From an uncultured Thermoanaerobaculia bacterium (lineage in GTDB: Bacteria; Acidobacteriota; Thermoanaerobaculia; Thermoanaerobaculales; Sulfomarinibacteraceae), in contig CAYTTB010000001.1 of the NCBI GenBank assembly GCA_964440565.1, positions 29,361-93,360 on the forward strand: a stretch of 64,000 nucleotides of DNA, given 5' to 3'. Positions 1 to 21,922 of the stretch are shown in pieces. Position 1 is the stretch's first letter. The number at the start of each line of letters is the position of its first letter. Under the pieces are notes generated by a model. It was not told the origin of the DNA. It saw only the letters and a program-made list of their open reading frames with translations, and made no database searches. A program made the position numbers and the translations under genes.

Positions 1-1388
1 GCACCGGCTCGGTGGTGGGCAACCTGTACAAGGGGAGGGTGGTGCGGGTCCTGCCCGGGATGCAGGCGGCGTTCGTGGACATCGGCCTGCCGCGGGACGG
101 GTTCCTCTACGTGCGGGAGGCGGGGGGGATCCTGGAGGACTTCACCGACCTGCTCCCCGAGCACGAGGGCGAACCGCTGGAGCTTCCCCCCGACGCCGCC
201 ATCGACGACCTCCTGCGCGAGGGCCAGGAGGTGCTGGTGCAGGTGGTGAAGGACGGGATCGGCAGCAAGGGCGCCCGCCTCACCACCTACGTGACGCTCC
301 CGGGCCGCTTCCTGGTCTACCTGCCCACGGTCCCCCAGCACGGTGTCTCGCGGCGGATCACCGACCCGGAGGAGCGCGCCCGCCTCAAGGCCATCGTGTC
401 GGCGTTCGCCGACCCCGGCGGGTGGATCGTGCGCACCGCCGGCGAGGGGCTCGACGCCGCCGCCCTCGACGCCGACCGGCGGCAGCTCCTCGCGCAGTGG
501 GCGCAGATCCAGGTCGCGGCGGAGCGGGCCCGGGCTCCGGCGCTGGTCCACCGGGAGCTCAGCCCGGTGCTGCGCACCGTCCGCGATCTGTTCACCGACG
601 AGGTCGCGGAGTGCTGGGTGGACGACGTGGACAGCTACCGCGAGGTGGTGGAGTTCCTGGAGTCCGCGGACCCGGCCCTGGTGCCGCGGGTGAAGCTCTA
701 CCGCCGGCAGGGCGACCTCATGACCGCCTTCGGGATCGAGGAGGAGCTGGAGAAGGCGCTCCGGCCCAGGGTCTGGCTCAAGTCCGGCGGGTACCTGGTG
801 GTCAACCAGACCGAGGCGCTGGTGGCCATCGACGTCAACACCGGCAAGTACCTGGGCTCCACGTCGCTCGAGGACACCGCGCTGAAGATCAACCTGGAGG
901 CGGTGCGGGAGATCGTGCGCCAGCTCAGGCTGCGCGACCTCGGCGGGATCGTGGTGATCGACTTCATCGACATGGAGGACCCCGCCAACCGCCGGCGCGT
1001 GTACGAGGCGCTCCGGGAGGAGCTCCGGAGCGACCCTGCCCGTTCCCAGCTGCTGCCCATGAGCGACATCGGCCTGGTGCAGCTGACGCGCAAGCGGACC
1101 CGGGCGAGCCTCGAGCGGACCCTGTCGCGCGAGTGCCCCTACTGCCACGGCCGCGGCCGGATCAAGTCGCTGGCCACCATCTGCCTCGAGATCCGGCGCG
1201 CGGTGCTCGGGCTCGCCGAGCAGGAGCGGCCGGGCTCGGTCTCGCTCACCGTGCACCCCCAGGTGTCGCACTACCTGCAGGGGCCGATGCGCGAGGTGCT
1301 GCGCGAGCTGGAGGAGGAGCACGGCGTCCAGGTGGTCCTGCGCGAGAACCCCTTGCTGCACCAGGAGGAGTACGAACTGCTGCCGTGA
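1..1388 (+). CDS. rng: Ribonuclease G/E family endoribonuclease, 5' end cut by window edge
   Basis: ORF 12..1388. It has the S1-domain motif VGNLYKGRVVRVLPGMQAAFVDIG and core motifs ALVAIDVNTGK and GGIVVIDFIDM. In E. coli RNase G the first motif lies about 35 aa from the N-terminus, so the true start is probably upstream of the window. Confidence 0.85.
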   Translation, partial: TGSVVGNLYKGRVVRVLPGMQAAFVDIGLPRDGFLYVREAGGILEDFTDLLPEHEGEPLELPPDAAIDDLLREGQEVLVQVVKDGIGSKGARLTTYVTLPGRFLVYLPTVPQHGVSRRITDPEERARLKAIVSAFADPGGWIVRTAGEGLDAAALDADRRQLLAQWAQIQVAAERARAPALVHRELSPVLRTVRDLFTDEVAECWVDDVDSYREVVEFLESADPALVPRVKLYRRQGDLMTAFGIEEELEKALRPRVWLKSGGYLVVNQTEALVAIDVNTGKYLGSTSLEDTALKINLEAVREIVRQLRLRDLGGIVVIDFIDMEDPANRRRVYEALREELRSDPARSQLLPMSDIGLVQLTRKRTRASLERTLSRECPYCHGRGRIKSLATICLEIRRAVLGLAEQERPGSVSLTVHPQVSHYLQGPMREVLRELEEEHGVQVVLRENPLLHQEEYELLP

Positions 1389-1395
1389 ACCGGCC

Positions 1396-2376
1396 TCACA
1401 GGTACGCCACCGCGAACCCCACCTGCGCGGTCATCATCATCAGGTACATGTGGGTCCAGGAGGGATGGTTCTCCACCCGGGCCAGCGCCCCCGGATCCCG
1501 CAGCATGAGGCGGACGGTGTGGGCCCCCCAGGCGGCCAGCAGGAGCCCCAGCGCCACCAGGATCGGCGCGTGGCCCGTGAGGACCGGGTGGGTCGGGTTC
1601 GCCGGGTCGGGCAGCAGCGCTCCGGCCGGCACGAGGAGCCACGGAAGCACGAAGAACGGTGCCATCAGGTGGATCGCGCGGCGCGGCCCGTAGATCAGCG
1701 GCAGCGTCCGGCAGCCCCCGCGGCGGTCGCCGTCCATGTCCGAGAAGTCCTTGGTGGAGGCGGCCCCGAGCAGGAACAGCCCGAAGACGGCCCCGATCCA
1801 CCACGGCTCCGCCGACCACACCGGCGCCACCATGGACCACCCCGCGACCTTGAGCAGGGTGCCGCGGGGGATGGCGATGGTGAGGTTGGCGAGCCACCCG
1901 AGCCGCTTGGTGCGGCCGAAGGTCGGCAGCGAGTACACCAGCGTGAAGGCGAGCCCGGCGAGGTAGATGAAGAAGCAGACGTGCTCGGCCACGGGAGCGG
2001 TGAGCTTGGCCCGGAGCGTGTCGTACGGGTGGGGCACCACGAGCCAGGTGGGCACGAGCGCGAGGGCGTACAGGGCCACCGTCACCCGCCACGCCTGCCG
2101 GAGGCTCACCCGTCCCGAGGGCAGGGGCCGTCCGGGCTTGTTGAGCCGGTCGATCTCGAGGTCCGCGATCTGGTTCAGGATGTTGGAGGCGGCGTTCATC
2201 GCCGAGGCGCAGAGCGACCCCAGCGCCACGGTCCCCACCACCGCCAGCGTCAGCCGCCGCGCGGGGTCGGGGTTGTGCACCGAGCCGAAGGCGCACACCG
2301 CACCCGAGACGATGCCGAGCAGCGGGGGCAGCAACGTGAACGGGCGCGAGAGATCGCGGAGATCCCGCCAGGTCAT
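1396..2376 (-). CDS. UbiA-family polyprenyltransferase (acceptor unknown)
   Basis: Tail of ORF 1396..3600 from the ATG at 2376 (326 aa). It has the Asp-rich motif NQIADLEIDRLNKPGRPLPSG, a second motif KDFSDMDGD, and multiple hydrophobic helices. Its ATG overlaps the upstream stop (ATGA). Confidence 0.8.
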   Translation of the reverse strand: MTWRDLRDLSRPFTLLPPLLGIVSGAVCAFGSVHNPDPARRLTLAVVGTVALGSLCASAMNAASNILNQIADLEIDRLNKPGRPLPSGRVSLRQAWRVTVALYALALVPTWLVVPHPYDTLRAKLTAPVAEHVCFFIYLAGLAFTLVYSLPTFGRTKRLGWLANLTIAIPRGTLLKVAGWSMVAPVWSAEPWWIGAVFGLFLLGAASTKDFSDMDGDRRGGCRTLPLIYGPRRAIHLMAPFFVLPWLLVPAGALLPDPANPTHPVLTGHAPILVALGLLLAAWGAHTVRLMLRDPGALARVENHPSWTHMYLMMMTAQVGFAVAYL

Positions 2377-3653
2377 GGCGGGATGATACCCAGGAGGCGG
2401 GCCAGCGCCAGGGCGAGGAGGCCCCCGACGGCGGTGTCGGCGAGGTTGGTCCCGTGCTTGCTGGCCGGCCCGAGGCGGGGAAGCACCCCCTCGACCAGCA
2501 TCGCCGCGAACCCCGCCGCGGCCACCGCGGCCCCCCCCGCGGGCGGGAGCGCCCCCGTCGCCGCCGCCGCCCCGCCCACCACCGCCGCGCCCACGAGCGC
2601 CGCCACGGTCCCGGGTCCCGACACCGCACCCGGGGTCCCCGGGGGAACCGGATCGAGCCGCGGCAGCGTGTACGCCCGCCGCCCGAGGACCTTCCCCACC
2701 TCCGAGCCCAGCGTGTCGGCGAGGGCGGCGGCGAGGCTCCCGGCCACGAGGAGCGCGCCCACCGCCGAGCCCGGGTAGAGCCCGGCGAGCGCCGCCCCCA
2801 CCCCGGCGAGCGTGCCGTTGGCGGCCACGTGCGCGGCGCCGCGCCGGCACTCGTCCTCGAGCCCCCGCCGCCGCTTCTCGCCCCGGCGGAGCCGGGTGGC
2901 CGCCGTGCCGGTGGCCAGGAACAGCCACAGCAGCAGGTACGCCCGCCAGCCGCCGAGCCCCAGCGTCGCGGTGCCCAGCGCCCAGGCCGCCGCCACCCCG
3001 GCGGGCTCGAGCAGGCGGACCGCGAGCGCCGCGGCCGCGACGGCGGCGTTGATCGCGGCCGCGACACCCACCGCCGCGGCCGTGACGGCGGGAGGGCCGC
3101 CGGCGGCGAGCGCGGGCAGCAGGACCGCCGCACCGACGAGCGGCGGCAGGACGTTGTCGTCCAGCCCGTGCGGGACGGACTCCACCACCGCCGCCACCGC
3201 CACCGCGAGGACCAGCGCCGGCAGCGGCCGCCACCCGGAGACCGTACCGGGCCCGGCCACCCAGGCGAGCAGCGCGATCCCCAGCGCGCCCCCGCCCAGC
3301 GCGTAGCCGGCGAGGCCCTCCCACGTCTTGTCGGGGTTCCAGGGCAGCGGCCGGCGGCCGAGCGACATCCCCGCGATCCCGGCGAGCGCATCGCCCCCGG
3401 CGAGCAGTCCCCACCCGAACGCGGCCACGCCGAGGCCGCCCGCCGCCGGCGGGAGGTGGAACAGGAGCACGAGGGCCAGCACGACCAGCGGGTAGACGAG
3501 CACGCCCCGGTCGCTCGCCCCCTCCCGCGCGCTCGCCAGCCGGTGGCCCACGAGGCGGGGCAGCAGGAGGAGGTTGAAGGCGAAGGCGGCGAGGGCGCAC
3601 GCCGCTGCCTGCGGCCAGGTGAGCCAGCGCAGGAGCAGCGCGAAGGCGGCCAT
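2373..3653 (-). CDS. Polytopic membrane protein: CTP-dependent polyprenol kinase-like domain fused to a DUF92/TMEM19 (VTE6-like) domain
   Basis: Tail of ORF 2373..4577 from the ATG at 3653 (426 aa). The N-terminal ~190 aa carry GGDALAGIAGMSLGRRPLPWNPDKTWEG, a signature of the dolichol kinase / phytol kinase / CdsA superfamily. The C-terminal ~230 aa carry DUF92-like motifs RRGAAHVAANG, ALADTLGSEVG and PGTPGAVSGPGT. Confidence 0.65.
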   Translation of the reverse strand: MAAFALLLRWLTWPQAAACALAAFAFNLLLLPRLVGHRLASAREGASDRGVLVYPLVVLALVLLFHLPPAAGGLGVAAFGWGLLAGGDALAGIAGMSLGRRPLPWNPDKTWEGLAGYALGGGALGIALLAWVAGPGTVSGWRPLPALVLAVAVAAVVESVPHGLDDNVLPPLVGAAVLLPALAAGGPPAVTAAAVGVAAAINAAVAAAALAVRLLEPAGVAAAWALGTATLGLGGWRAYLLLWLFLATGTAATRLRRGEKRRRGLEDECRRGAAHVAANGTLAGVGAALAGLYPGSAVGALLVAGSLAAALADTLGSEVGKVLGRRAYTLPRLDPVPPGTPGAVSGPGTVAALVGAAVVGGAAAATGALPPAGGAAVAAAGFAAMLVEGVLPRLGPASKHGTNLADTAVGGLLALALARLLGIIPP

Positions 3654-3700
3654 CCCCGCGTGGACCGCCTTGCGCGCCCCCTCGCCCGGTGGCAGCGGCC

Positions 3701-4663
3701 TCACGCCCCCCCTCCGGCGACCCGTTCCCGCCACCAGTCGAGGAGGTCGGCGAGCGTGCGTTCGAGCGGGATCCGCGCCGTCCAGCCGGTGGCCTCCCGG
3801 AACCGGGAGGGGTCGCCGTACAGCGCCGGGATGTCGGTGGGACGGAGCCGATCCGCAGCCACCCGCACCTCGAGGCGCACCCGTGCGAGGGCGAGCAGGA
3901 TCTCGAGCACCTCCCGTACCGCGACCGGCCGCCCCGAGCAGACGTTGTACGGCCCGGGGGGGAGGCCGGGATCGAGCGCCGCCAGGTAGGCGTCGGCCAC
4001 GTCGCGCACGTCGGTGAAGTCGCGGACCACGTCGAGCGCGCCCACCTCCACCACCGGCTCCCGGACCCCCGCCTCGGCCCGGGCCACCTGCCGGGCCAGC
4101 GAGGAGGTCACGAACCGGGGGGGGCGTCCCGGCCCGGTGTGGTTGAACGGCCGCATTCGCACCGCGGCGAGCCCGTGGGCGCGCGCGTACTGGGCCGCCA
4201 GCAGGTCCTGCGCCGCCTTGGACACCCCGTACGGCGACACCGGACGGAACGGCGTCGCCTCGGTGGCGGGGAGATCCCCCTCGGGCACCGCACCGTACGC
4301 CTCCCCCGAGCACGCCACCACGAGCCGGGGGGTCAGCCCCTCCGCCCGCAGCGCCTCGAGGAGGTGCACCTGGCCCACCACGTTCACCTCCAGGACCTCC
4401 GCGGGGGCCGTGTAGGAGCCCGCCACGGTCGAGGCGGCGGCCAGGTGGATCACCGCGTCCGGCCGTGCGGCGCGCACCGCCGCCGCCACCGAGGGGCCGT
4501 CGCGGAGGTCCCCCACCACCGTCCGGAGCCGCGGATGGAGCCCCTCGGTGTCGGCGTCCCACCGCACGAGCCCCCACACCTCGGCGTCGGGCCGGCGGGC
4601 GAGGAGGCGTGGGACCAGGTGGCGGGCCACGAACCCCGTCGCGCCGGTGACCAGCACCCTCAC
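3701..4663 (-). CDS. NAD-dependent epimerase/dehydratase (extended SDR)
   Basis: Tail of ORF 3701..6529. The GTG at 4663 gives (M)RVLVTGATGFVARHL, and the YGVSK (YxxxK) motif is present. This GTG overlaps the stop of the rmlD-like gene (GTGA). An alternative ATG lies at 4702. Confidence 0.8.
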   Translation of the reverse strand: MRVLVTGATGFVARHLVPRLLARRPDAEVWGLVRWDADTEGLHPRLRTVVGDLRDGPSVAAAVRAARPDAVIHLAAASTVAGSYTAPAEVLEVNVVGQVHLLEALRAEGLTPRLVVACSGEAYGAVPEGDLPATEATPFRPVSPYGVSKAAQDLLAAQYARAHGLAAVRMRPFNHTGPGRPPRFVTSSLARQVARAEAGVREPVVEVGALDVVRDFTDVRDVADAYLAALDPGLPPGPYNVCSGRPVAVREVLEILLALARVRLEVRVAADRLRPTDIPALYGDPSRFREATGWTARIPLERTLADLLDWWRERVAGGGA

Positions 4664-5505
4664 CGCGCGGCCTCCAGGTAGCGGCGCAGCGCGTCCCGCC
4701 ATGGCGGCATCCGGCGGCCCAGGATCGCCGCGAGGCGCGAGGTGTCCAGCGCGGAGCTCGCCGGGCGTGGCGCCGGCCGGTGGAGCTGGGCGGTGGTGAT
4801 GGGCCGCACCGGGACCCCCGCGCCCAGCTCCTCGACGATGGCCTCCGCGAACCCGTGCCAGGTGGTGAAACCCTCGTTCACCGCGTGCACCACCCCCCGC
4901 GCTCCGGCGGCGACCAGGTCCAGGATCGCCTCGGCGAGGTCGGCGGCGTAGGTGGGGCTGCCCCGCTGGTCCGCCACCACCCGGAGCTCCCCGACGCCCC
5001 GCGCGATCTGGCGGCGGATCGCCTCCACGAAGTTGCGCCCCCCGACGCCGTACAGCCACGCGGTGCGTACCACGAGGTGGTCGGGGCAGGCGGCGGCGCG
5101 CCGCTCCCCCTCGAGCTTGCTGCGCCCGTACGCTCCCAGCGGCGCCGGGGGATCCTCCTCGCGGTACGGGCGGGAGAGCTCCCCGGAGAACACGTAGTCG
5201 GTGGAGAGCTGCACCAGCAGCGCGCCGGCCTCGGTGCAGGCCGCCGCCAGATGCCCCACCGCGATGCCGTTGACCTCGAGCGCCCGTCCGGGCTCGGCCT
5301 CGGCGCCGTCCACGTCGGTGTAGGCGGCGCAGTTGATCACCGCCTCCGGCCGGACCGTCCGGACCGCCGCGTGCACCGCCGCCGGGTCCGTGATGTCGAG
5401 CTCCGGCAGGTCCGGCGCCGTCACCGGGATCCCGCGCGAGGCGGCGGCGACCTGGAGCGCACGCCCCAGCTGCCCGCGGCCACCGGTCACCAGGAGCCCC
5501 GGCAT
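4660..5505 (-). CDS. rmlD: dTDP-4-dehydrorhamnose reductase family protein (RmlD-like)
   Basis: ORF 4660..5505, 281 aa. It has the Rossmann motif LLVTGGRGQLG plus STDYVFSG and YGRSKLEGE. No rmlA/B/C genes are nearby. Confidence 0.8.
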   Translation of the reverse strand: MPGLLVTGGRGQLGRALQVAAASRGIPVTAPDLPELDITDPAAVHAAVRTVRPEAVINCAAYTDVDGAEAEPGRALEVNGIAVGHLAAACTEAGALLVQLSTDYVFSGELSRPYREEDPPAPLGAYGRSKLEGERRAAACPDHLVVRTAWLYGVGGRNFVEAIRRQIARGVGELRVVADQRGSPTYAADLAEAILDLVAAGARGVVHAVNEGFTTWHGFAEAIVEELGAGVPVRPITTAQLHRPAPRPASSALDTSRLAAILGRRMPPWRDALRRYLEAAR

Positions 5506-5514
5506 GGGCGCATG

Positions 5515-6291
5515 CTAGCAGACGGAGCGCCGGGCGCGGGCGAGGGCGTGAGGGTAGGGCGTCCACCGCACGTCCCGGGGCTCCCATCCGCCCTCGGCCA
5601 GCTCCGCTCGGACCTCCTCCTCGGTGAAGGTGTGGATGTAGTGGGGCAGGAGGAGGTCGCCCACCTCGACGGGTGGACGGCCCAGGAGCGGCCGGAGCGG
5701 GCCGCTCACTCCCCTGGCGACGGCCCAGAACCAGCGGGGGGCGGCCCGTCCCACGAAGGACAGCAGCAGCGGGGCGGCGGGAGGGACGGCCTCGCGCAGG
5801 CGGCGGAGGAGCCGGACCCGCGTGGCCCGTCCCCGCACCAGGCTGTACATCCCCCACCCCAGGATCACCCCCCCGGGCCGGCCGGGGAACGCGGGGCAGC
5901 TGTCCGGCTCCATGGGCAGGAGGCGGAGCCCGGGGTCGGCCTCCCGGAGGATCTCGCGCCCCCGCGCGCGAAGGGCGGGGTTGCACTCGAACCCGGTGAC
6001 CCGGTACCCCATGGCGTGGAGGCCGAGGAGCTCCCGGCCGGCGCCGGCTCCCAGGACCGCGATCTCGCAGCCCGGTGGAAAGAGCTCCTCCACCGCGGCG
6101 CGCTCCCAGGGGTAGAGGCCGGACCGGTTGTATCCGGGGTCCGTGTAGGTGCGGGACCGAGCGTGGTGGGAGCTGTCGAGCGTGCGAAGGCTGGCGGGCG
6201 ACAGTCCCCCCAGGAACAGGCCGGTGTGGACGGCGCGCAGCAACCAGTCGAGGCGCTCGATCCACCTCCACGACAGACGGCAGAGAACCAC
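5515..6291 (-). CDS. Class I SAM-dependent methyltransferase
   Basis: Tail of ORF 5515..6480 with SAM motif I IAVLGAGAGRE. There is no nearby in-frame ATG, so the GTG at 6291 was chosen. The start is uncertain. Confidence 0.55.
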   Translation of the reverse strand: MVLCRLSWRWIERLDWLLRAVHTGLFLGGLSPASLRTLDSSHHARSRTYTDPGYNRSGLYPWERAAVEELFPPGCEIAVLGAGAGRELLGLHAMGYRVTGFECNPALRARGREILREADPGLRLLPMEPDSCPAFPGRPGGVILGWGMYSLVRGRATRVRLLRRLREAVPPAAPLLLSFVGRAAPRWFWAVARGVSGPLRPLLGRPPVEVGDLLLPHYIHTFTEEEVRAELAEGGWEPRDVRWTPYPHALARARRSVC

Positions 6292-13512: not shown

Positions 13513-14709
13513 GTGGGATACGATCTCCCCGTGACGCGGGTGCGCACCGGCCTCGACCGCCTGGTGGCCGATCCGGTCCTCCTGGCCGGGCGGCGGTGGG
13601 CGCTGCTCGCCAACCAGGCCGCGGTGACCGCGGGGCTCGAGCCCGCCCGGGCCGCGCTCGCCGCCGTGGCGGGCCCTCCCGAGGTCCTCTTCGCCCCCGA
13701 GCACGGCCTCGACGGGGTGGCGCAGGACATGGAGGCGGTCGCCGACGAGGCCGACCCCCTCACCGGGGTGCCGGTGCGCTCGCTGTACGGGAGCGACGCG
13801 GGGAGCCTCGCCCCCGAACCCGGCGAGCTCGAGGGGCTCGACGTCCTGGTGGTGGACCTGCCCGACATCGGGAGCCGGTACTACACCTTCGCCGCCACGA
13901 TGGACCTGGCCATGGGCGCGGCGTCCGCGGCCGGGGTGGAGGTGCTGGTGCTCGACCGGCCGAACCCGATCACCGGGCGCCACCGCGAGGGCGGGCTGGT
14001 GCGGGAGGGGTTCGCCTCGTTCGTGGGGCGGGTCCCGGTCCCGGCGCGGCACGGCCTCACCCTGGGCGAGATCGCCCTCCTCCTGCACCGCGAGCGCCAC
14101 TCCGGCCTCGACCTCACCGTCCTCGCCTGCGAGGGGTGGCGGCGGGGGATGTGGTGGGAGGCGACGGGGCTGCCCTGGGTGCCGCCGAGCCCCAACATGC
14201 CGACGCCCGAGACCGCGCTGCTGTACCCGGGGCTGTGCCTGGTGGAGGGGACCGAGCTCTCCGAGGGGCGCGGCACCACCCGGCCGTTCCACCTGGTGGG
14301 GGCGCCGGGGATCGACCCGTTCCGCCTCGTGGAGGCGCTGCGGGACCTCGGTCTGCCCGGTGCCGGGTTCCGGCCCGCGCGGTTCCGGCCGATGTTCGGC
14401 AAGCACGCGGGGCGGGTGTGCGGCGGGGTCGAGCTCTTCGTGCTCCACCGCGAGGCGATCCGGCCGGTGGAGCTGGGCCTGCGGCTGCTGGCCACGATCC
14501 ACGACCTGTTCCCCGAGGCGTTTCGCTGGCGGGAGCGGCCGTACGAGTTCGTCGCCGACGTCCCCGCCATCGACCTCCTCACCGGCTCGGACGAGGCGCG
14601 CCGCCGCATCGACGCGGGCGAGCCGCTGGAGCCGCTGCTCGCGGCCTGGCGCGAGGAGGTCGCCGCCTTCGAGTCCCGCCTCGAGGGGGTGCTGCTCTAC
14701 CGGAAGTGA
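13513..14709 (+). CDS. DUF1343 family protein (exo-beta-N-acetylmuramidase NamZ family)
   Basis: ORF 13513..14709 with a GTG start after GGAGGGTGG. Motifs LFAPEHG, LVVDLPDIGSRYYTF and LDRPNPITG are present. Confidence 0.8.
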   Translation: MGYDLPVTRVRTGLDRLVADPVLLAGRRWALLANQAAVTAGLEPARAALAAVAGPPEVLFAPEHGLDGVAQDMEAVADEADPLTGVPVRSLYGSDAGSLAPEPGELEGLDVLVVDLPDIGSRYYTFAATMDLAMGAASAAGVEVLVLDRPNPITGRHREGGLVREGFASFVGRVPVPARHGLTLGEIALLLHRERHSGLDLTVLACEGWRRGMWWEATGLPWVPPSPNMPTPETALLYPGLCLVEGTELSEGRGTTRPFHLVGAPGIDPFRLVEALRDLGLPGAGFRPARFRPMFGKHAGRVCGGVELFVLHREAIRPVELGLRLLATIHDLFPEAFRWRERPYEFVADVPAIDLLTGSDEARRRIDAGEPLEPLLAAWREEVAAFESRLEGVLLYRK

Positions 14710-14717
14710 GGGCGGGG

Positions 14718-14813
14718 CTCACCGCAACCGGCGCAGCCGCCGGACCTCCTCCACGATGCGGGCGGCCGCCCGGTCCACCTCGGCCCCGGTGGTGAACCGG
14801 CCGACGGCGAGGC
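14718..14813 (-). pseudogene. Orphan 3' fragment (last ~31 codons plus stop) of a cysteine desulfurase gene
   Basis: By hand alignment, 90/96 nt are identical to 15952..16047. It would encode ...LAVGRFTTGAEVDRAAARIVEEVRRLRRLR*, against ...LAVGRFTTEAEVDRAAARIVEEVRRLRRLG* in the intact gene. It lies 9 nt from the DUF1343 stop. Confidence 0.7.
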
Positions 14814-14996
14814 CCGGAGCCCGGCGCACGGGCGATCCGCCGCCGACACGGTGGGGGGACGACGCGGGCCGGGCCCCGCTCCGTGGCAGGTGCAGGGGCC
14901 CTCACGGCGAGACCTCTTCGCGTCCGGGCATGAGCGGCGCGGGTCGAGCGAGGTCGGCGTCGCATCCGCCGGGCCGTCGCCGCCCCCGGAGCGCGC

Positions 14997-15035
14997 GGGG
15001 GTTGACACCGGGTGGGGGGGGTTGACCTGCGGTGG
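14997..15035 (+). repeat. Tandem 20-bp direct repeat containing TTGAC (possible operator or promoter element)
   Basis: GGGGGTTGACACCGGGTGG (14997-15015) is followed by GGGGGTTGACCTGCGGTGG (15017-15035). The pair ends 27 nt upstream of the ATG at 15062. Confidence 0.6.
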
Positions 15036-15061
15036 TGAACACGGCCGGAAGGAGGTCTACC

Positions 15062-15427
15062 ATGAGGCGAGGGATCGGGGTGATGGTCGTCGCCGCGCTG
15101 GCGTTGGCGATGACGCGTGCGGGAGCCTCAAGGGCTCAGGAGCTTCCGCACCTGCGGAACCTTGCGGTCGGGGTCTGGCAGCTGGGTGACGGAGGCGGAT
15201 ACGTGGTCGTCGGCGTCGAGGGCCACCGCTGGCTCCTCGAGCACCTTCGCCTCGAGCGGAGCAGGGCAGCGGCCGCGTGCGAGGACGGAGCGCGTGCGTC
15301 CTGCGCGGGCCAGGTCGCATCGTCCGAGCGCGGACGCGGCCGCGCCGGTCACCGGCTCCGCGGACTGCCGGTAGGCGTCCCCGGTGCGGACCGCGCACCC
15401 GGGGGCGAGGCAAGGAGGCGGCCATGA
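15062..15427 (+). CDS. Hypothetical secreted protein
   Basis: The in-frame ATG at 15062 is preceded by GGAAGGAGG. The signal peptide is MRRGIGVMVVAALALAMTRAGASRAQE. The C-terminal half is Arg/Gly-rich and of low complexity. The stop overlaps the next ATG (ATGA). Confidence 0.4.
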   Translation: MRRGIGVMVVAALALAMTRAGASRAQELPHLRNLAVGVWQLGDGGGYVVVGVEGHRWLLEHLRLERSRAAAACEDGARASCAGQVASSERGRGRAGHRLRGLPVGVPGADRAPGGEARRRP

Positions 15428-15822
15428 GACCGGGGGCACGCTGGTGGGTGGTCGGGCTCGCGGTGGTCGGGCCCGCGCTGATGATGGCAGGTTGCAACGA
15501 CTCCGAGCTGCCCACGGAGCCGGAGGCGCCCACCGCCCAGGTCACGGTGGGGGTGGAGGCGACCTGCGCGGGGGTGGTGCCCGGGGTGGACGTGCTGCTC
15601 GACGGGGAGCCCGTGGGTCACGTCCGTGCGGGGGACACCCTCGCCTTCGTGGTCACGGGCGCGGGCGAGCACGAGCTGCTGCTGCGCGCCGCCGACGGGC
15701 GCGAGTGGAGGGTGACCCTCGGCATGATCGCCGCCGGCGGCGGCGGCGGGAGGCGGTCCGGCTTCTGGGTGAGCCTCGCCTGCACCGCCTCCGGCGCACG
15801 GGTCACCGTGAGCGAGGTCTGA
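15424..15822 (+). CDS. Lipoprotein with PEGA-like beta domain
   Basis: The in-frame ATG at 15424 is preceded by AAGGAGG. The lipobox is LMMAGC. VDVLLDGEPVGHVRAGDTLAFVVTGAGEHELLL resembles a PEGA domain. Confidence 0.65.
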   Translation: MRPGARWWVVGLAVVGPALMMAGCNDSELPTEPEAPTAQVTVGVEATCAGVVPGVDVLLDGEPVGHVRAGDTLAFVVTGAGEHELLLRAADGREWRVTLGMIAAGGGGGRRSGFWVSLACTASGARVTVSEV

Positions 15823-15951
15823 CCGGCGCCCGCCGGCGCGGCGTCGGGCGGCTCGCGGGGCGGGAGGGTCGCCGGCGGTCGCGGCGCCCGCGGACCGGCG
15901 AGGGTACCCAGGCGTCACGTGCCCGGCGGGGACCGCCCGCCGCCAGCCGGC

Positions 15952-16047
15952 CTCACCCGAGCCGGCGCAGCCGCCGGACCTCCTCCACGATGCGGGCGGC
16001 CGCCCGGTCCACCTCGGCCTCGGTGGTGAAGCGGCCCACGGCGAGGC
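15952..16047 (-). repeat. Direct-repeat partner of 14718..14813 (functional 3' end of the cysteine desulfurase gene)
   Basis: See 14718..14813. The two copies are 1234 bp apart in the same orientation. Confidence 0.7.
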
Positions 16048-17110
16048 GCAGCGAGGCGCGGGCGAGGTCCGGGGGGAGCCCCATCGCCCGCAGCACCGGT
16101 GACGGCTCGGGGCTTCCCGCCGAGCAGGCGGCGCCGGAGCTCACCGCGAGGTCGGGGAGCGAGGCGAGCAGGGCCTCGCCGTCGACCCCCTCGAAGGCGA
16201 GGTTGGTGACGCCGGGCAGGCGCGCCCCGGGGTCTCCGGAGACGCTGACGCCGTCGAGCTCGCCGAGGATCGCGCCCTCGAGACGGTCGCGCAGCCGCGC
16301 GAGGCGGGCCGCCTCCTCGGCACGCGCCGCCACCGCCAGCTCCACCGCGACCGCGAAGCCCACGATGCCGGGGACGTTGAGCGTCCCCGGGCGCAGCCCC
16401 CCCTCCTGGCCGCCGCCGTCGAGCAGCGGCTCGGGCCGCACCGCGAGACCGCGCCGGATCCAGAGCGCCCCCACCCCCTTCGGCCCGTACAGCTTGTGCG
16501 CCGACAGCGCCACCGTGTCGGCACCGAGGGCGTCCAGCTCGAGCGGGACCTTCCCCGCCGCCTGGGCGGCGTCGCAGTGCAGCAGCGCCCCGTGCCGGTG
16601 GGCGAGCTCCGCCGCCTCCCGCACCGGCTGCAGCGTGCCGGTCTCGTTGTTGGCGGCCATCAGCGCCGCCAGCACGGCGCCGTCGGCGAGCGCCGCCTCG
16701 AGCTCGTCGAGGCGGACCCGGCCGCGCCGGTCCACCCCCACCACGGTGAGCTCGAACCCCTCGCGGGCGAGGCGCCGCAGCGGCTCCAGCACCGAGGCGT
16801 GCTCGGTGGCCTGGGTCACGATGCGGCGCCCCCGCGCGGCGAGGGCGCGGGCGAGCCCCTTGAGGGCGAGGTTGTTGGCCTCGGTGGCCCCGGAGGTGAA
16901 CACGATCTCGCTGGCGGCGCCGGCGCCGAGCGCGCGGGCGATCCGCCGGCGCGCGTCCTCCACCGCCAGCGCCGCGTCGCGGCCGGGGCGGTGGGTGCGG
17001 CTCGAGGGGTTGGCGAACCGCTCGCCGAAGTACGGCAGCATCGCCTCCACCACCCGCGGGTCGCACGGGGTGGTGGCCGCGTGGTCCAGGTAGATCGGCC
17101 CGTTCTCCAC
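15953..17110 (-). CDS. Cysteine desulfurase (NifS/IscS family, class V aminotransferase)
   Basis: Tail of ORF 15953..17356. The GTG at 17110 gives (M)ENGPIYLDHAATTP. The PLP-Lys motif SAHKLYGPKG and the active-site motif SSGAACS are present. Confidence 0.88.
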   Translation of the reverse strand: MENGPIYLDHAATTPCDPRVVEAMLPYFGERFANPSSRTHRPGRDAALAVEDARRRIARALGAGAASEIVFTSGATEANNLALKGLARALAARGRRIVTQATEHASVLEPLRRLAREGFELTVVGVDRRGRVRLDELEAALADGAVLAALMAANNETGTLQPVREAAELAHRHGALLHCDAAQAAGKVPLELDALGADTVALSAHKLYGPKGVGALWIRRGLAVRPEPLLDGGGQEGGLRPGTLNVPGIVGFAVAVELAVAARAEEAARLARLRDRLEGAILGELDGVSVSGDPGARLPGVTNLAFEGVDGEALLASLPDLAVSSGAACSAGSPEPSPVLRAMGLPPDLARASLRLAVGRFTTEAEVDRAAARIVEEVRRLRRLG

Positions 17111-17144
17111 GTCCGCGATTCTACGGCCTTCCCCGGCCCGTGGG

Positions 17145-19179
17145 GTGACCTCCCGCCGTGGTACAACGGTGCCCGTGCACGGGAGTGCGGACGGCGCCGG
17201 GGCCTCGCCGCGCCGGTGGCCGTGGGTGGTGGGCGTCGTGCTGCTCGCCCTCGCCCTGCGGCTGTGCGGTGTGGGGGCGCTGTCGCCGTGGCTCGACGAG
17301 GTGTTCCAGCTCGAGCGCGTCGCGGCGCCCATCGCCGGGCTCTGGCGGGGGAGCACGGCGTTCCCCGATCACCCACCGGGCTCGGCGCTGCTGATGCGGG
17401 CCCTCGCGACGCTGGGCGCCGGCGAGGCCCAGCTGCGCGTCGCCTCGGTGGCGGCCGCCGTGGCGGCGCTTCCCTTGCTCATGATCTGGGTGGAGGCGCG
17501 TTTCGACCGGCGCGTGGCCGCCCTCGTGGGCGTCCTGGGTGCGGTCTCGCCCTACCACCTGCGCTACTCGCAGGAGCTGCGACCGTACCCGTACCTGCTG
17601 CTCGCCGCCGCGGCGACGCTGGTGCTCGCGGACCGCCTGCTTCGGGGGCGGGGCGGCAGATGGACCGTTCCGGGCCTCGCGGCGGCCTTCGCCGGCGGCC
17701 TCTGGACCCACGACACCTTCCCTGTGGTCGTGGTACCCATCGCGGCCGCGGCGTGTGCGCGCCGAGGGGAGCTGGCACCCGGGTGGCCGCGCCGGCTGGC
17801 GGCGAGCGGGGCGCTCGCCCTCGCGCTCTACCTCCCGCTGCTGCCCCGCCTCGTGCGGCAGGCAGCCGCCGCGTCGTCGCCCACGGCCGAGACGTGGGGT
17901 TGGTGGTTTCTCTCCCGACGCTGGGCTTTCCTGACCGTGGCGGGCCGCGAGGGGATCCCGTCCGGCTGGGGTGCCGCCGCCTTCGCGGCAGCGGCGGCGC
18001 TCGGCGCGGGCGTGGCGGCGGCCCGGTGGCGACGGGGGGGGGCTCGAGGTGCTCACAGGCCTCCTCGCCGGGATCGCCGGGGTGGAGAGCGTCTTCCACT
18101 TCGTCTTCCGGCGCTGGACGGCGGGCCGCTACGACATCGTGGGCTGGCCGTTCCTGGTGATCCTCGTGGCGCTCGGCGTGGACGCCCTCTGGCGCCGGGC
18201 GCGCGCCGCGGGGGCGCTGGCCGCGACGGCACTGGTGACCTCGAGCCTCGTGGGCGTCGTCGCCTACTGGAACGAAGGGCGCCCGCGGTGGGACCGGATG
18301 GCGGAGGCAGTGAGGGCGGTCCGGCGCGCGGGCGAGCCGGTGCTCGCGGAGAGCCTGTTCTGCGAGCGACCGCTCTCCCGCCTGCTCGCCGGCGACGGCG
18401 TGGAGGTGATCCGGCTCGACGGCGACCTCGGGCGCCTGTGGCGGGTGTGGCCGCGGGACCGCTCCGCACTCCTGGTGCGGTGTGGGGATCCCCAGTCGGC
18501 GCCCCTGCGCCGCGTCGCGGCCCGGCTGCCGCGGATCGTGGCGCACGCCCCGCATGGGTGGCTGTACCGGCTGCCGCCGCGCTCGTGGGCGCGGCGTCGC
18601 TCGGATGGCTCGATCGGCGTGGCCGGCGCCTCCCCCGCCGGCGCGTGGCCGGAGCCGAGCCTTTCGCTCCTCCCGGTCCGGGTGGCGTGCCCCGAGGCGT
18701 TCTGCCTCGGCCGGTGGCTCGCCCGACCCCGCCCGAGCCCGGTCGAGGTTCCCGCGAGGCTCGAGTTCGACGGTCCCGAGACGCGACGCGCCCTGCTGGG
18801 GGCCTGGGGCGGGGACGAGCGGACGCGCGACGGCACCACCTTCGCCTGGGCGACCTCGCTGGAGGTCGGCGTGGCGTTCCACATCGCCCGGCCGCGTCCG
18901 CTGCACCTCGCCCTCAGACTGTGGCCGTACGCCGGGACGCTCCCCGGCCAGGCGGTGCGGGGCCTGGTGGGCGGCCACGAGCTGGGATGGGTGCGCCTCG
19001 GAGCAGGAGCGCACGAGCTGGGCGCGCCCATCCCGGCGGGCGCGCTGCGGCCGGGCACCAACCTGCTCGTTCTCCAGTTCGCGCGGGCGGTGGCCCCGGC
19101 CGAGGTGCGTCCGGGATCGCGCGACCGCCGGCCGCTCGCCGCCGCCCTCGACTGGATCGAGATCGCCCCCGCGGAGTGA
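17145..19179 (+). pseudogene. GT-C fold membrane glycosyltransferase (family 39 / ArnT-PMT-like) split by a frameshift at a G9 tract
   Basis: The N-terminal polytopic part reads in the frame of ORF 17145 (LDEVFQLE loop motif, many TM helices) up to about 18033. The sensible sequence continues in the frame of ORF 17971 (LEVLTGLLAGIAGVESVFHFVF... to DRRPLAAALDWIEIAPAE*). Each frame becomes Arg/Gly/Pro junk on the other side of the tract. Confidence 0.7.
18034..18042 (+). repeat. G9 homopolymer at the frameshift point
   Basis: The sequence reads gac ggggggggg ctc. An 8-G version would join the two frames into one ORF of about 677 aa. Confidence 0.9.
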
Positions 19180-19188
19180 GCGCCGGCG
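19124..19188 (+). repeat. 65-bp perfect direct repeat, copy 1 (3' end plus stop of the glycosyltransferase gene)
   Basis: Identical to 20571..20635 at an offset of 1447 bp. Identity extends to 19117 with one mismatch. It includes the TGA at 19177-19179 and 9 nt beyond. Confidence 0.9.
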
Positions 19189-19491
19189 GGCGGGCGGACG
19201 GCCCCGTGGGGAGGTGGCGAAGCGTACCACGTCGTGGCTGGTCGGGGCGGGGATCGACACGGACGGAGGGACCCACGGTCGCGTCACACCTCCGCGACCC
19301 ACCTGTACGCCGCCGTCTCCGAGCTGCTTGTGGTCGAGCGGCGGGACATCTCCACCACGGAGACCATCCCCACCCGGTGGATCGAGCCCGTGACGAGGCC
19401 TTCGAGCGGCCCTGGCGGTCCGCCGGCCCCGGGGGCACGGCGGTCCTCCGGGGCCGCGTTCCTGTTCCGGGTCGCGCCACGGATGGTTCGA

Positions 19492-19520
19492 TGGACACGC
19501 GCGGCACGTGGTGATACACT
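19492..19520 (+). promoter_or_regulatory. Putative sigma70-type promoter of the antitoxin/toxin pair
   Basis: TGGACA (19492-19497), a 17-nt spacer, then TACACT (19515-19520) preceded by TG. The region is locally AT-richer. GGAGGT lies 6 nt before the ATG at 19557. Confidence 0.4.
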
Positions 19521-19556
19521 GTACTTACGAGAGACGCCGATGCCGGAGGTGTCGTC

Positions 19557-19784
19557 ATGGTCAAGCGCCTGACGAGGCACGGGAACAGCCTGGCGCTCGT
19601 CATCGACCGGCCGATACTGGAGCTGCTCAAGATCGACGCCGACACGCCGCTCGAGATCTCCACGGACGGGCGGGTCCTGATCGTCTCTCCGGTCCGTGAC
19701 GCCGAGGACCGGAAGAGGCTCGAGAAGGCCCTGGAGAAGGTGAACCGGAGATACGGTCGTGCCCTCGAGCGCCTCGCACAGTGA
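19557..19784 (+). CDS. AbrB/MazE/SpoVT-fold antitoxin
   Basis: ORF 19557..19784, 75 aa. The motif RHGNSLALVIDRPILELLKIDADTPLEISTDGRVLIVSP is a swapped-hairpin barrel signature. The ORF lies immediately upstream of, and overlaps, doc. Confidence 0.8.
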   Translation: MVKRLTRHGNSLALVIDRPILELLKIDADTPLEISTDGRVLIVSPVRDAEDRKRLEKALEKVNRRYGRALERLAQ

Positions 19785-20172
19785 CCGTGTCCCCCGCTTC
19801 CTGAATCTCGGCGAGGTGCTCTTCATCCACCGCGACCAGATCGAGCGCTACGGCGGCGAGCCCGGTATCCGGGACGTCGGTCTGCTGCAGTCGGCGCTCG
19901 CCATGCCGGCGGCGGGGTTCGGGGGCCGGTTCCTGCACGGCGACCTGTTCGAGATGGCCGCGGCCTACCTCTTCCACATCACCAGGAACCACCCCTTCGT
20001 GGACGGGAACAAGCGGACCGGTGCGGCGTGCGCGCTCGTCTTCCTCGAACTCAACGGGATCGAGATCGATGCCAGCGAGGACGAGCTGGTGGGGATGGTC
20101 ACCGCCGTGGCCGAAGGCAGGGCGGAGAAGGGGGCCATCGCCGATTTCTTCCGCAGGCACGCTCACGGGTGA
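19759..20172 (+). CDS. doc: Doc (death-on-curing) Fic-family toxin
   Basis: ORF 19759..20172 with Fic/Doc motif HPFVDGNKRTG and an N-terminal LNLGEVLFIHRDQIERYGG. The GTG start overlaps the antitoxin by 26 nt, and the exact start is uncertain. Confidence 0.85.
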   Translation: MPSSASHSDRVPRFLNLGEVLFIHRDQIERYGGEPGIRDVGLLQSALAMPAAGFGGRFLHGDLFEMAAAYLFHITRNHPFVDGNKRTGAACALVFLELNGIEIDASEDELVGMVTAVAEGRAEKGAIADFFRRHAHG

Positions 20173-20200
20173 CCCCCCTCGCAATCGCCAGGACTGGTGT

Positions 20201-20220
20201 GCGCGTGTCGTCACACGCGT
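20201..20220 (+). terminator. Hairpin downstream of doc
   Basis: CGCGTGT-cgtc-ACACGCG is a 7-bp stem about 30 nt after the doc stop. It has no U-tract. Confidence 0.3.
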
Positions 20221-20570
20221 CGTCCCGAGAGACATTCTCGAAGCCCTGCAACGCTCCCCGTCCGGGCCCCCGGGTTCGACAGTTTCGGAACCGGAGTGGG
20301 CAGGACTCTCGGGGTGCGATGTCGAGCGACCTGAGGTTTCCATGGCTGGATCGCGCGCCGTCGTGACGATCAGGCCTCACGGCGTCGCCTCGCGACGGGG
20401 ACGGTGCGCACGGGTGTCACACCGGTCTCTCCCGAGCAGCGGCGCCTCTTCGAGGCGCTCGCCGCCGACCGACCCACCCGCAAGCGGCAGGAGGCTGCGG
20501 CGTGGGCGGGAGCTCCCGGAAGCCGATCCAGACGTGGGTGCGAGAGTGTCGAACTCGGGTAGTTCGCGCC

Positions 20571-20635
20571 ACCGCCGGCCGCTCGCCGCCGCCCTCGACT
20601 GGATCGAGATCGCCCCCGCGGAGTGAGCGCCGGCG
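20571..20635 (+). repeat. 65-bp perfect direct repeat, copy 2 (orphan glycosyltransferase 3' end)
   Basis: Identical to 19124..19188. It would encode ...RRPLAAALDWIEIAPAE* but has no upstream gene body. Confidence 0.9.
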
Positions 20636-20648
20636 CCGGGTGCGGGGA

Positions 20649-20698
20649 CCACGGCGGGGCTCCCCGCGGGGAGGTGGGATCGCGGGGTCCCGCCGTGG
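20649..20698. terminator. Compound GC-rich hairpin between the orphan repeat and the ftsZ stop
   Basis: The outer stem is CCACGGCGGG/CCCGCCGTGG (10 bp) and the inner stem is CCCCGCG/CGCGGGG (7 bp). It lies 25 nt downstream of the ftsZ stop on the minus strand. Confidence 0.4.
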
Positions 20699-20722
20699 CC
20701 CGGAGGCGGTCCCGGTCGCCGC

Positions 20723-21922
20723 TCAGTCGAGCTGGTTCCTCAGGATCGCCGGGACCTCGTACTCCTCCTTGGGCGCTCCGGTGCCGTGGATCCCGTACCA
20801 CGGGTCGCTGGGCTCCAGGAACGGGCTGCGCGGCCGCGCGCCCTCCTCGGCCGGCCGCTCGGCCTCGGCCTCGGCGGTGCGCCGCTCGGTCGCCTCGCCA
20901 CCGAAGCCGGTGGCGATCACCGTCACCCGGAACTCGCCCTCGAGGTCGGGGTCCACCACCGCGCCGAACAGGACGATGGCGTCGCGGTCGGCGCTCTCGG
21001 TGATGATCTCCGCCGCCTCGTTGACCTCGGTGAGCGTCATGTCGGCGCCGCCGGTGAGGTTGATGAGGATCCCGCGCGCGCCGGCGATGGACGTCTCCTC
21101 CAGCAGCGGCGAGGCGATCGCCTGCTGGGCCGCCTCCACCGCCCGGTGCTCGCCGGAGGCCGCGCCCACCCCCATGATGGCGTGGCCCATGTCCTTCATC
21201 ACCGTGCGCACGTCGGCGAAGTCGCGGTTGATCAGCCCGGGCTTGGTGATGATGTCGGCGATCCCCTGCACCGCCTGACGGAGCACGTCGTCGGCGATGC
21301 GGAGCGCGTCGGTGAACGACGTGGAGCGGTCCACGAACTTGAGCAGCCGCTCGTTGGGGATCGTGATCAGGGTGTCCACGTGCGCCTCGAGCTGGGCGAT
21401 CCCCTCCTCCGCCACCCGGCGGCGGCGCGTCCCCTCGAAGGGGAACGGCTTGGTCACCACCGCCACCGTGAGGGCGTCGGCCTGCGAGGCGATCTGGGCG
21501 ATCACCGGCGCCGCCCCGGTGCCGGTGCCCCCGCCCATGCCGCAGGTGACGAACACCATGTCGGCGCCCGTGACCAGCTCGTGCAGCCGGTCGGTGTCCT
21601 CCACCGCCGCCCGGCGGCCGATGTCGGGGTCGGCGCCGGCGCCGAGGCCTCGCGTCACCTCCGGGCCCAGCTGCACCTTCACCGGCGCCGTGCACTGCTC
21701 GAGCGCCTGGGCGTCGGTGTTGACGGCGATGAACTCCACCCCCGCCACCCCCGCCGCCATCATCCGGTTGATCGAGTTGCAGCCGCCGCCCCCCACGCCG
21801 ATCACCTTGATCACCGCCGGCGAGGACGCCTCCTCCAGCTGGATCCGCGGGCCCTCGCCAGGCGCCGGGGAGCCCCGCTCCCCCCGTGGGTCGTCGTGCC
21901 TCGAGTCGAGCCTGATGTTCAC
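20723..21922 (-). CDS. ftsZ: Cell division protein FtsZ
   Basis: Tail of ORF 20723..23044. The GTG at 21922 follows GGGAGGTGG and overlaps the ftsA stop (GTGA). Motifs [17 protein letters not shown] and [12 protein letters not shown] are present. Length 399 aa. Confidence 0.92.

Follow-up and report, generated by a model that had tools for sequence, protein, structure and literature searches.

How does the 3′ end of a housekeeping gene come to be present twice, with two small genes of the opposite strand lodged in between? The question is raised by a stretch of 64,000 nucleotides (nt) from an uncultured Thermoanaerobaculia bacterium (GenBank assembly GCA_964440565.1, contig CAYTTB010000001.1, positions 29,361 to 93,360 of the forward strand), which was analysed over its whole length, is called the window here, and provides all unprefixed positions below. 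In it, the convergent genes for NamZ (DUF1343) and for a cysteine desulfurase are separated by an interval, 14814-15945, that we call islet 1; it holds two open reading frames, ORF1 and ORF2, and is bordered on either side by a copy of the desulfurase gene end. The answer that we favour, with a probability of about 0.55, is that islet 1 is the eroded, integrase-less remnant of an integrative element, likeliest a temperate phage or an integrase-driven element of similar kind, a reading that leans on the analogy with a second islet nearby.

The end of the desulfurase gene is duplicated

A repeat scan and direct comparison revealed that 14712-14813 and 15946-16047 are identical at 94 of 102 nt, ungapped and at a spacing of 1234 nt. 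The original prediction had described a slightly narrower span from a hand alignment (14718-14813 and 15952-16047, same orientation, 90/96 nt identical), and computed alignment reproduced it far above chance. When all 102-mers of the window were compared with one another at distances of 150-6000 (3.6e8 pairs), the background ended near 60/102, and all scores of at least 65 belonged either to this repeat or to the 19117/20564 repeat of islet 2, the only other strong repeat in the whole-window scan.

The native copy forms the end of a desulfurase gene whose product matches the NCBIfam NifS/IscS models at 1e-122 to 1e-126, under their equivalog cut-offs; this 3′ end has a GC content at third codon positions (GC3) of about 1.0 and is in frame with the rest of the gene. 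The frame of the distal copy, the orphan, is likewise intact over 31 codons and a stop, and its minus-strand peptide, LAVGRFTTGAEVDRAAARIVEEVRRLRRLR, differs from that of the native copy, LAVGRFTTEAEVDRAAARIVEEVRRLRRLG, at two of 31 residues (asterisk, stop). Mismatches in the repeat (14714, 14717, 14724, 14725, 14727, 14786, 14797, and 14803) are clustered at the edges and flank an identical core of 58 nt; when mismatches are placed at random, the probability of 56 or more consecutive identical nt is 0.01-0.03. Six of the differences are coding: two in one Leu codon (TTG/CTC) as well as GTC/GTG and CGG/CGC, the third-position changes already noted in the prediction, are synonymous, while GGG/GAG (G/E) and CGG/GGG (R/G) are not. 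The E-to-G change of the orphan was considered as a sign of decay and rejected, since this position varies among relatives. Both copies end in the short C-terminal tail RRL[G/R]*, which is found in no relative; this traces both ends to a single narrow lineage, which is what an attachment (att) site adapted to the host would show. Past either edge of the repeat, local alignments were no better than those of shuffled sequence.

As the data are metagenomic, the structure might have arisen when two strain variants of the desulfurase end were joined during assembly, and a Logan contig (L003) that covers the interval between the cores does stop precisely where the repeat core lies, which is the behaviour of a k=31 graph. 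The whole structure is, however, contained in a contig of the Joint Genome Institute (JGI) that spans both copies, and a second JGI contig, from another sample, holds the native copy and most of islet 1; all three contigs are 99.99-100% identical to the window. The same sequence in independent contigs therefore speaks against an artefact. So does the point at which the orphan ceases to match the desulfurase, which is 28 nt beyond the shared core and out of reach of any common k-mer that might have caused a chimeric join. We regard an assembly error as extremely improbable.

The NamZ-desulfurase junction in related genomes

Relatives were found by a NamZ search with one genome per species, which assigned the window to the class Thermoanaerobaculia of the Acidobacteriota, and the distances between stops were measured after the genes had been extended to their stop codons. 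The closest NamZ is 70% identical and the next-best desulfurase 68-69%, with none between 69% and 100%, and clusters at 90% contain the same strain only; the databases thus offer no close relative. NamZ and desulfurase genes are convergent neighbours in 23 related Thermoanaerobaculia loci, and in eight of these 23 species (L005, L007, L012, L013, L014, L031, L032, and L037) the gap between their stops is -4 to 27 nt. In the window, 9 nt separate the stop of the orphan (14719-14721) from that of NamZ (14707-14709), a distance inside this empty-site range, and the orphan therefore marks the old end of the desulfurase gene, just as had been proposed for a locus without the interval. The tight gap in eight relatives also makes the tight convergent pair the ancestral state and the interval of islet 1 an insertion; an empty site of the kind named in the original prediction is present in these eight relatives, at 60-70% protein identity, and none of the relatives carries the interval or a duplicated desulfurase end.

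The remaining relatives have stop gaps of 95-1444 nt, again without the islet 1 interval, and a second desulfurase end or flanking repeat was seen in none of the 15 with a gap of at least 95 nt. What fills the gap differs from lineage to lineage: a gene for a 489-amino-acid (aa) sulfatase-like lipoprotein in L029, the L019 copy of which is split over two reading frames, a protein of approximately 125 aa in L010 and L011, and low-GC non-coding DNA in L006, L016, L020, and L021, with a conserved stretch in common to the 345-684 nt of such DNA in L020 and L021. The NamZ-desulfurase gap is an insertion hotspot and a recurrent landing site across the class. In a further genome (L004:10001-12502), NamZ converges directly on ftsZ, and the segment from the desulfurase to the glycosyltransferase gene is absent or elsewhere.

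These loci also bear on the view that nothing was inserted at all, ORF1 and ORF2 being fast-evolving natives and the orphan all that is left, after an unrelated local duplication, of a second desulfurase gene now decayed. Such a history could point to the GC3 of ORF2, which is close to the native value, and to a gapped alignment of the two gene ends that can be extended by about 22 nt beyond 14813. This extension adds almost no score, though, and a tblastn search of the interval with the whole desulfurase matches the repeat only; with eight relatives devoid of any interval and the orphan exactly at the expected native end, we consider ancient residence highly unlikely.

Contents of islet 1

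The two genes overlap by an ATGA at 15424-15427 and have AGGAGG (Shine-Dalgarno) sites, in agreement with the coupled pair that had been described before. In a GC frame plot the frame signal of ORF1 is weak and gone after about 15300, whereas ORF2 is clearly coding. The proposed comparison of GC3 between the interval and its flanks gave a divided answer: ORF1 is atypical (0.80 versus 0.97-0.98 in the flanking genes) and ORF2 is near native (0.94); the overall GC content of the islet resembles that of its flanks. No homologue of either protein was found among 5.8e9 proteins except in the same strain, nor in PHROGs or NCBIfam; ORF1 remained a singleton cluster without Pfam match, and ORF2 recovered only its own sequence. 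Cargo genes without homologues, together with the atypical GC3 of ORF1, would fit a foreign insert.

ORF2 had been described as a PEGA-like lipoprotein, a label that is not supported: the protein has no Pfam match to PEGA (PF08308) at E<=5, and only BiPBP_C approaches significance, with 26.5 bits under a cut-off of 26.8. A single-sequence AlphaFold (AF2) model with a predicted local distance difference test score (pLDDT) of 72 is an eight-stranded beta-sandwich, for which the PDB offers generic sandwiches only, all at E>1e-3. The left arm of the islet shows no coding signal in the frame plot and no Pfam match in six frames. The TTGAC repeats pointed out upstream of ORF1 do exist, as two GGGGGTTGAC motifs 20 nt apart (14997-15006 and 15017-15026); their interpretation as promoter elements is unsupported, as a scan of 14600-16100 gave no sigma-70-like promoter and no terminator. 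No Rfam family was found in 14000-21000.

A second islet of the same design

Islet 2 (19189-20563) lies 5 kb from islet 1, and its two 72-nt repeat copies are 1447 nt apart. In order, it consists of the gene-proximal repeat, about 20 nt, a fragment of a phage integrase gene that begins at this distance inside the repeat, a toxin-antitoxin moron, 337 nt, and the orphan repeat. The fragment was recognized by tblastn with the integrase of contig L065: amino acids 241-263 and 265-295 are found in different frames, a 12-nt deletion removes ALGH, and the nt identity is 80% with 2-3 indels. An intact tyrosine recombinase related to this integrase does not occur within the 64-kb window. The cargo has a small antitoxin gene before a Fic/Doc toxin gene, the arrangement of a type II toxin-antitoxin system of the Doc kind. 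The integrase represented by the fragment is that of a phage family which has terminase and portal genes, and this identifies islet 2 as the scar of a prophage now drastically reduced; its repeats, built on the 3′ end of the target gene, correspond to attL and attR. There is a weak tension between the three indels of the integrase fragment and the single mismatch of the adjacent repeat, for which conversion between the two copies, or divergence that preceded integration, may be responsible. Positions of all features are listed in Table 1.

The target of islet 2, a PMT_2-like glycosyltransferase gene (17145-19179), has a peculiarity of its own in a frame switch at a run of nine G near 18031-18039. 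Its coding signal follows frame A to about 17990 and frame B thereafter, and frame A remains open up to a stop at 19514, so that the gene is either a pseudogene or carries a phase-variable homopolymer tract. A 311-aa minus-strand gene called over it is probably spurious.

Table 1. Positions of islet 1, islet 2, and the adjoining genes in the window.
Feature	Position	Strand	Remarks
NamZ (DUF1343) exo-beta-N-acetylmuramidase gene, left neighbour	13513-14709	+	Pfam NamZ_N 1.2e-67, NamZ_C 3.8e-49
Orphan copy of the desulfurase 3′ end	14712-14813	-	Up to 7 nt plus 31 codons and stop (14719-14813); read as distal att-type repeat
Identical repeat core, 58 nt	14728-14785 (partner 15962-16019)		Candidate crossover or gene-conversion tract
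Left arm of islet 1, non-coding	14814-15061		78% GC; two GGGGGTTGAC motifs
ORF1, 121 aa	15062-15427	+	Signal-peptide-like N-terminus; last ~40 codons doubtful as gene
ORF2, 132 aa	15424-15822	+	Lipobox (MAGC); small beta-sandwich protein
Right arm of islet 1, non-coding	15823-15945		88% GC; between ORF2 stop and native repeat
Native copy of the desulfurase 3′ end	15946-16047	-	Functional last 31 codons and stop (15953-16047); read as gene-proximal att-type repeat, the distal part of which would come from the element
Cysteine desulfurase gene, NifS/IscS type, 385 aa, target gene	15953-17110	-	Pfam Aminotran_5 8.8e-82
Gene-proximal repeat of islet 2	19117-19188	+	Last 20 codons, stop, and 9 nt of the PMT_2-like gene; 71/72 identical to 20564-20635
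Decayed 3′ fragment of phage tyrosine integrase gene and downstream spacer	19209-19472	+	Homology to L065
AbrB/MazE-type antitoxin gene, 75 aa	19557-19784	+	Sub-threshold MazE/AbrB-fold match
Doc/Fic toxin gene	19759-20172	+	Pfam Fic 7.7e-19; PHROG Doc-like toxin 6.4e-34
Orphan repeat of islet 2	20564-20635	+	88 nt from ftsZ stop (20723)

Origin of islet 1

We propose that an element carrying a copy of its target gene's end in its attachment site would have inserted into the 3′ end of the desulfurase gene by site-specific recombination. The element's copy (15946-16047) would then complete the desulfurase, and the original end (14712-14813) would come to lie beyond the element, at an unchanged distance of 9 nt from NamZ. 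The integrase and nearly everything else would have been lost in later deletions that left two small genes for secreted proteins as moron-like cargo, while the repeats diverged at their edges and crossover or gene conversion kept the 58-nt core identical. Both the former presence of an integrase and the identity of the element-derived copy are the most likely reconstruction here, and the core could still support a RecA-mediated loss of the islet that would restore the 9-nt gap.

Several lines of evidence support this origin. The repeat runs from the 31st codon before the stop to at most 7 nt past it and is sharply bounded, which is the geometry of attL and attR at a gene 3′ end. Islet 2 has the same architecture, with a gene that reads in, a duplicated end, and an orphan by the old downstream neighbour, and in addition the integrase fragment; by analogy, islet 1 most likely arose in the same way. 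As in attL-attR scars, the repeats bracket the insert with the gene intact, and relatives lack the insert at the orthologous site; as in a cis-mobilizable element (CIME), att-type sites surround an element without recombination or transfer genes. A transposon or insertion sequence would not account for islet 1, which has no transposase, no terminal inverted repeats at its ends, and a duplication of 102 nt. Nor would the displacement known from Rhs and other polymorphic toxin genes, given that the two ends are near-identical and belong to a NifS/IscS-type desulfurase gene.

Other observations weigh against an integrating element. Islet 1 has no integrase remnant beside its att-type repeat, where islet 2 has one. 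Its freedom from integrase and transposase, which the original prediction had stated, was borne out by Pfam searches of the ORFs and of six-frame fragments; nor was any phage trace revealed by PHROGs, NCBIfam, or tblastn and tblastx against 99 phage- or toxin-antitoxin-related loci, and tblastn with the L065 integrase gave no match. A free element with the repeat core was not found either: 30-mers of both repeat cores are missing from the viral contigs of IMG/VR, and an exact 40-mer of the core of islet 1 is not in the metagenome collection, which evidently does not include the source samples. Islets 1 and 2 have no sequence in common and no significant common end motifs, so that they are linked by analogy only, and the relatives with an empty site are only 60-70% identical in protein sequence. 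Lastly, the earlier view of two homologous gene ends, as opposed to a fresh duplication, is, while unproven, in line with the att model favoured here, where the element brings along a gene end of its own. The ratio of four synonymous to two non-synonymous differences does not distinguish between the models, being compatible with ends that had diverged beforehand as well as with duplication followed by decay.

The missing integrase is the natural starting point for a route that never needed one. DNA from a closely related strain, comprising a desulfurase end and the two genes, could have recombined via RecA and orphaned the resident 31 codons, in variants such as a Campbell-type single crossover of a circle or homology-facilitated illegitimate recombination with the illegitimate join at 14813/14814; the structure produced in the end would be no different. 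The 58-nt identical core is sufficient for RecA pairing, the two ends are close homologues with the same short tail, and the same logic has been proposed for orphaned 3′ ends in Rhs and type VI secretion system (T6SS) effector arrays (PMC5361080); at the wzy locus of Salmonella, an islet that is flanked by 113-bp repeats and lacks an integrase can leave the chromosome and return to it, possibly in a RecA-dependent manner (PMC12074656). This route requires a donor in which the cargo already lay beside a homologous desulfurase gene, however, which pushes the original insertion back by one step, and neither such a donor nor a homologue of ORF1 or ORF2 was found among the 5.8e9 proteins. Homology-facilitated illegitimate recombination is also reported to occur less often than ordinary recombination by orders of magnitude (PMC5361080), and islet 2, nearby and similarly designed, holds an integrase fragment. 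Displacement of the gene end by incoming homologous DNA is a possible origin of islet 1, if an unlikely one.

The toxin-antitoxin cassette and its phage family elsewhere

Homologues of the Doc protein of islet 2 are 84-91% identical, whereas the core genes of this genome have none above 70% protein identity. At the nt level the cassette reaches 84-91% identity in contigs of 48-69% GC, and this high identity across contigs of varied GC indicates that it travels horizontally. Substitutions specific to the cassette in the window (19557-20172) number 15 from AT to GC versus one from GC to AT; the cassette has drifted towards the 75% GC of the host or the host's phages.

In L065, the closest contig, the cassette is found just downstream of a 312-aa tyrosine recombinase gene (Pfam Phage_integrase 5.8e-40). 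Comparison of L065:1843-2562 with L067:9417-9422 revealed a clean 720-nt insertion of the cassette 60 nt downstream of the integrase gene, where it replaces 6 nt; there is no target duplication between these two contigs. The same spot is occupied by a different Doc-type pair (53% identical) in L103 and by larger inserts in L072-L076. The recombinase family (57-91% identity) comprises dozens of metagenome loci with conserved gene order and 11 IMG/VR viral contigs, and its neighbours in L067 are a Mu-like portal, a large terminase, a weak small-terminase match, AbiEii, and a primase-like gene. On account of its conserved synteny the L065 recombinase was considered as a housekeeping Xer protein, which was rejected because of the portal, terminase, and primase-like neighbours and the presence of the family in IMG/VR. 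Comparison of integrated and free forms did not yield the attP of this phage family, as the homology of L092 to its relatives is confined to the integrase gene. In L067 (7501-10217), the integrase module, made up of an 84-aa gene, a 132-aa SAM-like gene, and the integrase gene, lies on the opposite strand between the small-terminase-like and the large terminase genes, an unusual position for a lysogeny module.

The cassette led to a third islet, on an unrelated metagenome contig (L062, repeats at 768-970 and 2482-2681; also in L063 and L064). There the same Doc cassette, at 88-90% nt identity, forms an islet of 1.5 kb between direct repeats of 182-203 nt that are 89-91% identical and correspond to the 3′-proximal coding region of a gene for a 904-aa beta-helix protein; the orphan is in frame with many amino-acid changes. 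The same cassette between repeats of a gene's 3′-proximal region supports the integrating-element reading of islet 1. Perfect 144-nt direct repeats, 1776 nt apart, were also seen around a DUF4143/AAA_14 ATPase gene in L060 (3289-3432 and 5065-5208); the genome has 48% GC, and the gene is part of a cluster for restriction-modification and defence.

Taken at face value, repeat lengths that vary among islets (72, 102, and 182-203 nt) are what a non-specific process would leave. A staggered break might have taken up a foreign fragment, or replication might have switched templates and restarted about 100 nt upstream, so that 14712-14813 was duplicated, later diverged, and was converted in its middle part. 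The repeats are built from lineage-specific host genes, the cargo of islet 2 begins in the middle of a foreign gene, and a 16-nt motif after both copies of the islet 2 repeat (15/16 identical, P of about 0.03, marginal) hints at a longer tract that perhaps ended at microhomology with the integrase sequence. Against such a duplication of the target site, the repeats of islets 1 and 2 end at or just past the stop of the target gene, the integrase fragment adjoins the repeat of islet 2, and the same cassette was inserted without duplication in L065 compared with L067. We know of no bacterial process that regularly yields target duplications of 70-200 nt, and a literature search gave nothing, which we also count against it; all in all, we hold a long target-site duplication to be rather improbable. 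Similarly doubtful is a general integrase-independent route, common to this genome and at least the unrelated L062, that would insert cassettes of 1-1.5 kb behind genes and duplicate 70-200 nt of their 3′ coding end, with the repeats maintained by conversion. If it did exist, the islets would be reversible like the Salmonella wzy locus, and small cassettes would be added and removed in a general and unrecognised manner without dedicated mobility genes.

Implications

Should islet 1 indeed derive from an integrating element, it would document the decay of such elements in Thermoanaerobaculia, a poorly known class of the Acidobacteriota: elements would shrink to att repeats around a few cargo genes, with the original end of the target kept as a fossil. 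The cysteine desulfurase gene would join the protein genes that serve as integration targets, and the convergent NamZ-desulfurase gap would be a landing site used recurrently throughout the class. For annotation, orphan gene ends are easily miscalled as spurious short genes, and ORF1 and ORF2 are best handled as element-derived cargo.

Comparison with known systems

In the passages of PMC5361080 that treat Rhs and T6SS effector-immunity arrays (with Jackson et al., 2009, cited therein), an incoming segment provides a new 3′ end and the old end is shifted downstream as an orphan. Islet 1 likewise has a new 3′ end and an old one left as a downstream orphan; the new end in those arrays encodes a different toxin domain with an immunity gene, unlike the ends at islet 1, which encode the same peptide of a housekeeping enzyme. 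The wzy locus of Salmonella Typhimurium holds a 2.6-kb islet between 113-bp direct repeats named attL and attR, without an internal integrase; these repeats lie between genes and match perfectly, and experiments have demonstrated that the islet is excised, circularised, and reinserted (PMC12074656). Islet 1 is similarly small, with direct repeats of about 100 bp and no integrase, and differs in that its repeats are 92% identical and stem from a gene 3′ end, and in being known from sequence alone.

Minimal mobile elements of Neisseria are exchanged by homologous recombination in the flanking genes, and no duplicated gene end is left behind. The NamZ-desulfurase site resembles them as a fixed location between conserved genes with different small cargoes per lineage; the duplicated gene end sets islet 1 apart.

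The closest parallels are remnants of prophages and integrative elements that lie between attL and attR at the 3′ ends of protein genes, and the integrase-less CIMEs derived from them; examples are ICESt1/ICESt3 and the CIMEs at the fda 3′ end in Streptococcus thermophilus. Like these, islet 1 has repeats that include the last codons of the target, an intact gene, an orphan on the far side, and a small, putatively foreign cargo, and like CIMEs it is without an internal recombinase. Unlike them, it has no known cognate integrase, free element, or excision product, and its repeat (102 nt, 92%) exceeds most att identity segments in both length and divergence. It also differs in its host, an uncultured member of the Thermoanaerobaculia, and, to our knowledge, no cysteine desulfurase gene has been reported as an integration target. 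Most likely, islet 1 is a further case of a familiar type of feature, the scar of an integrating element.

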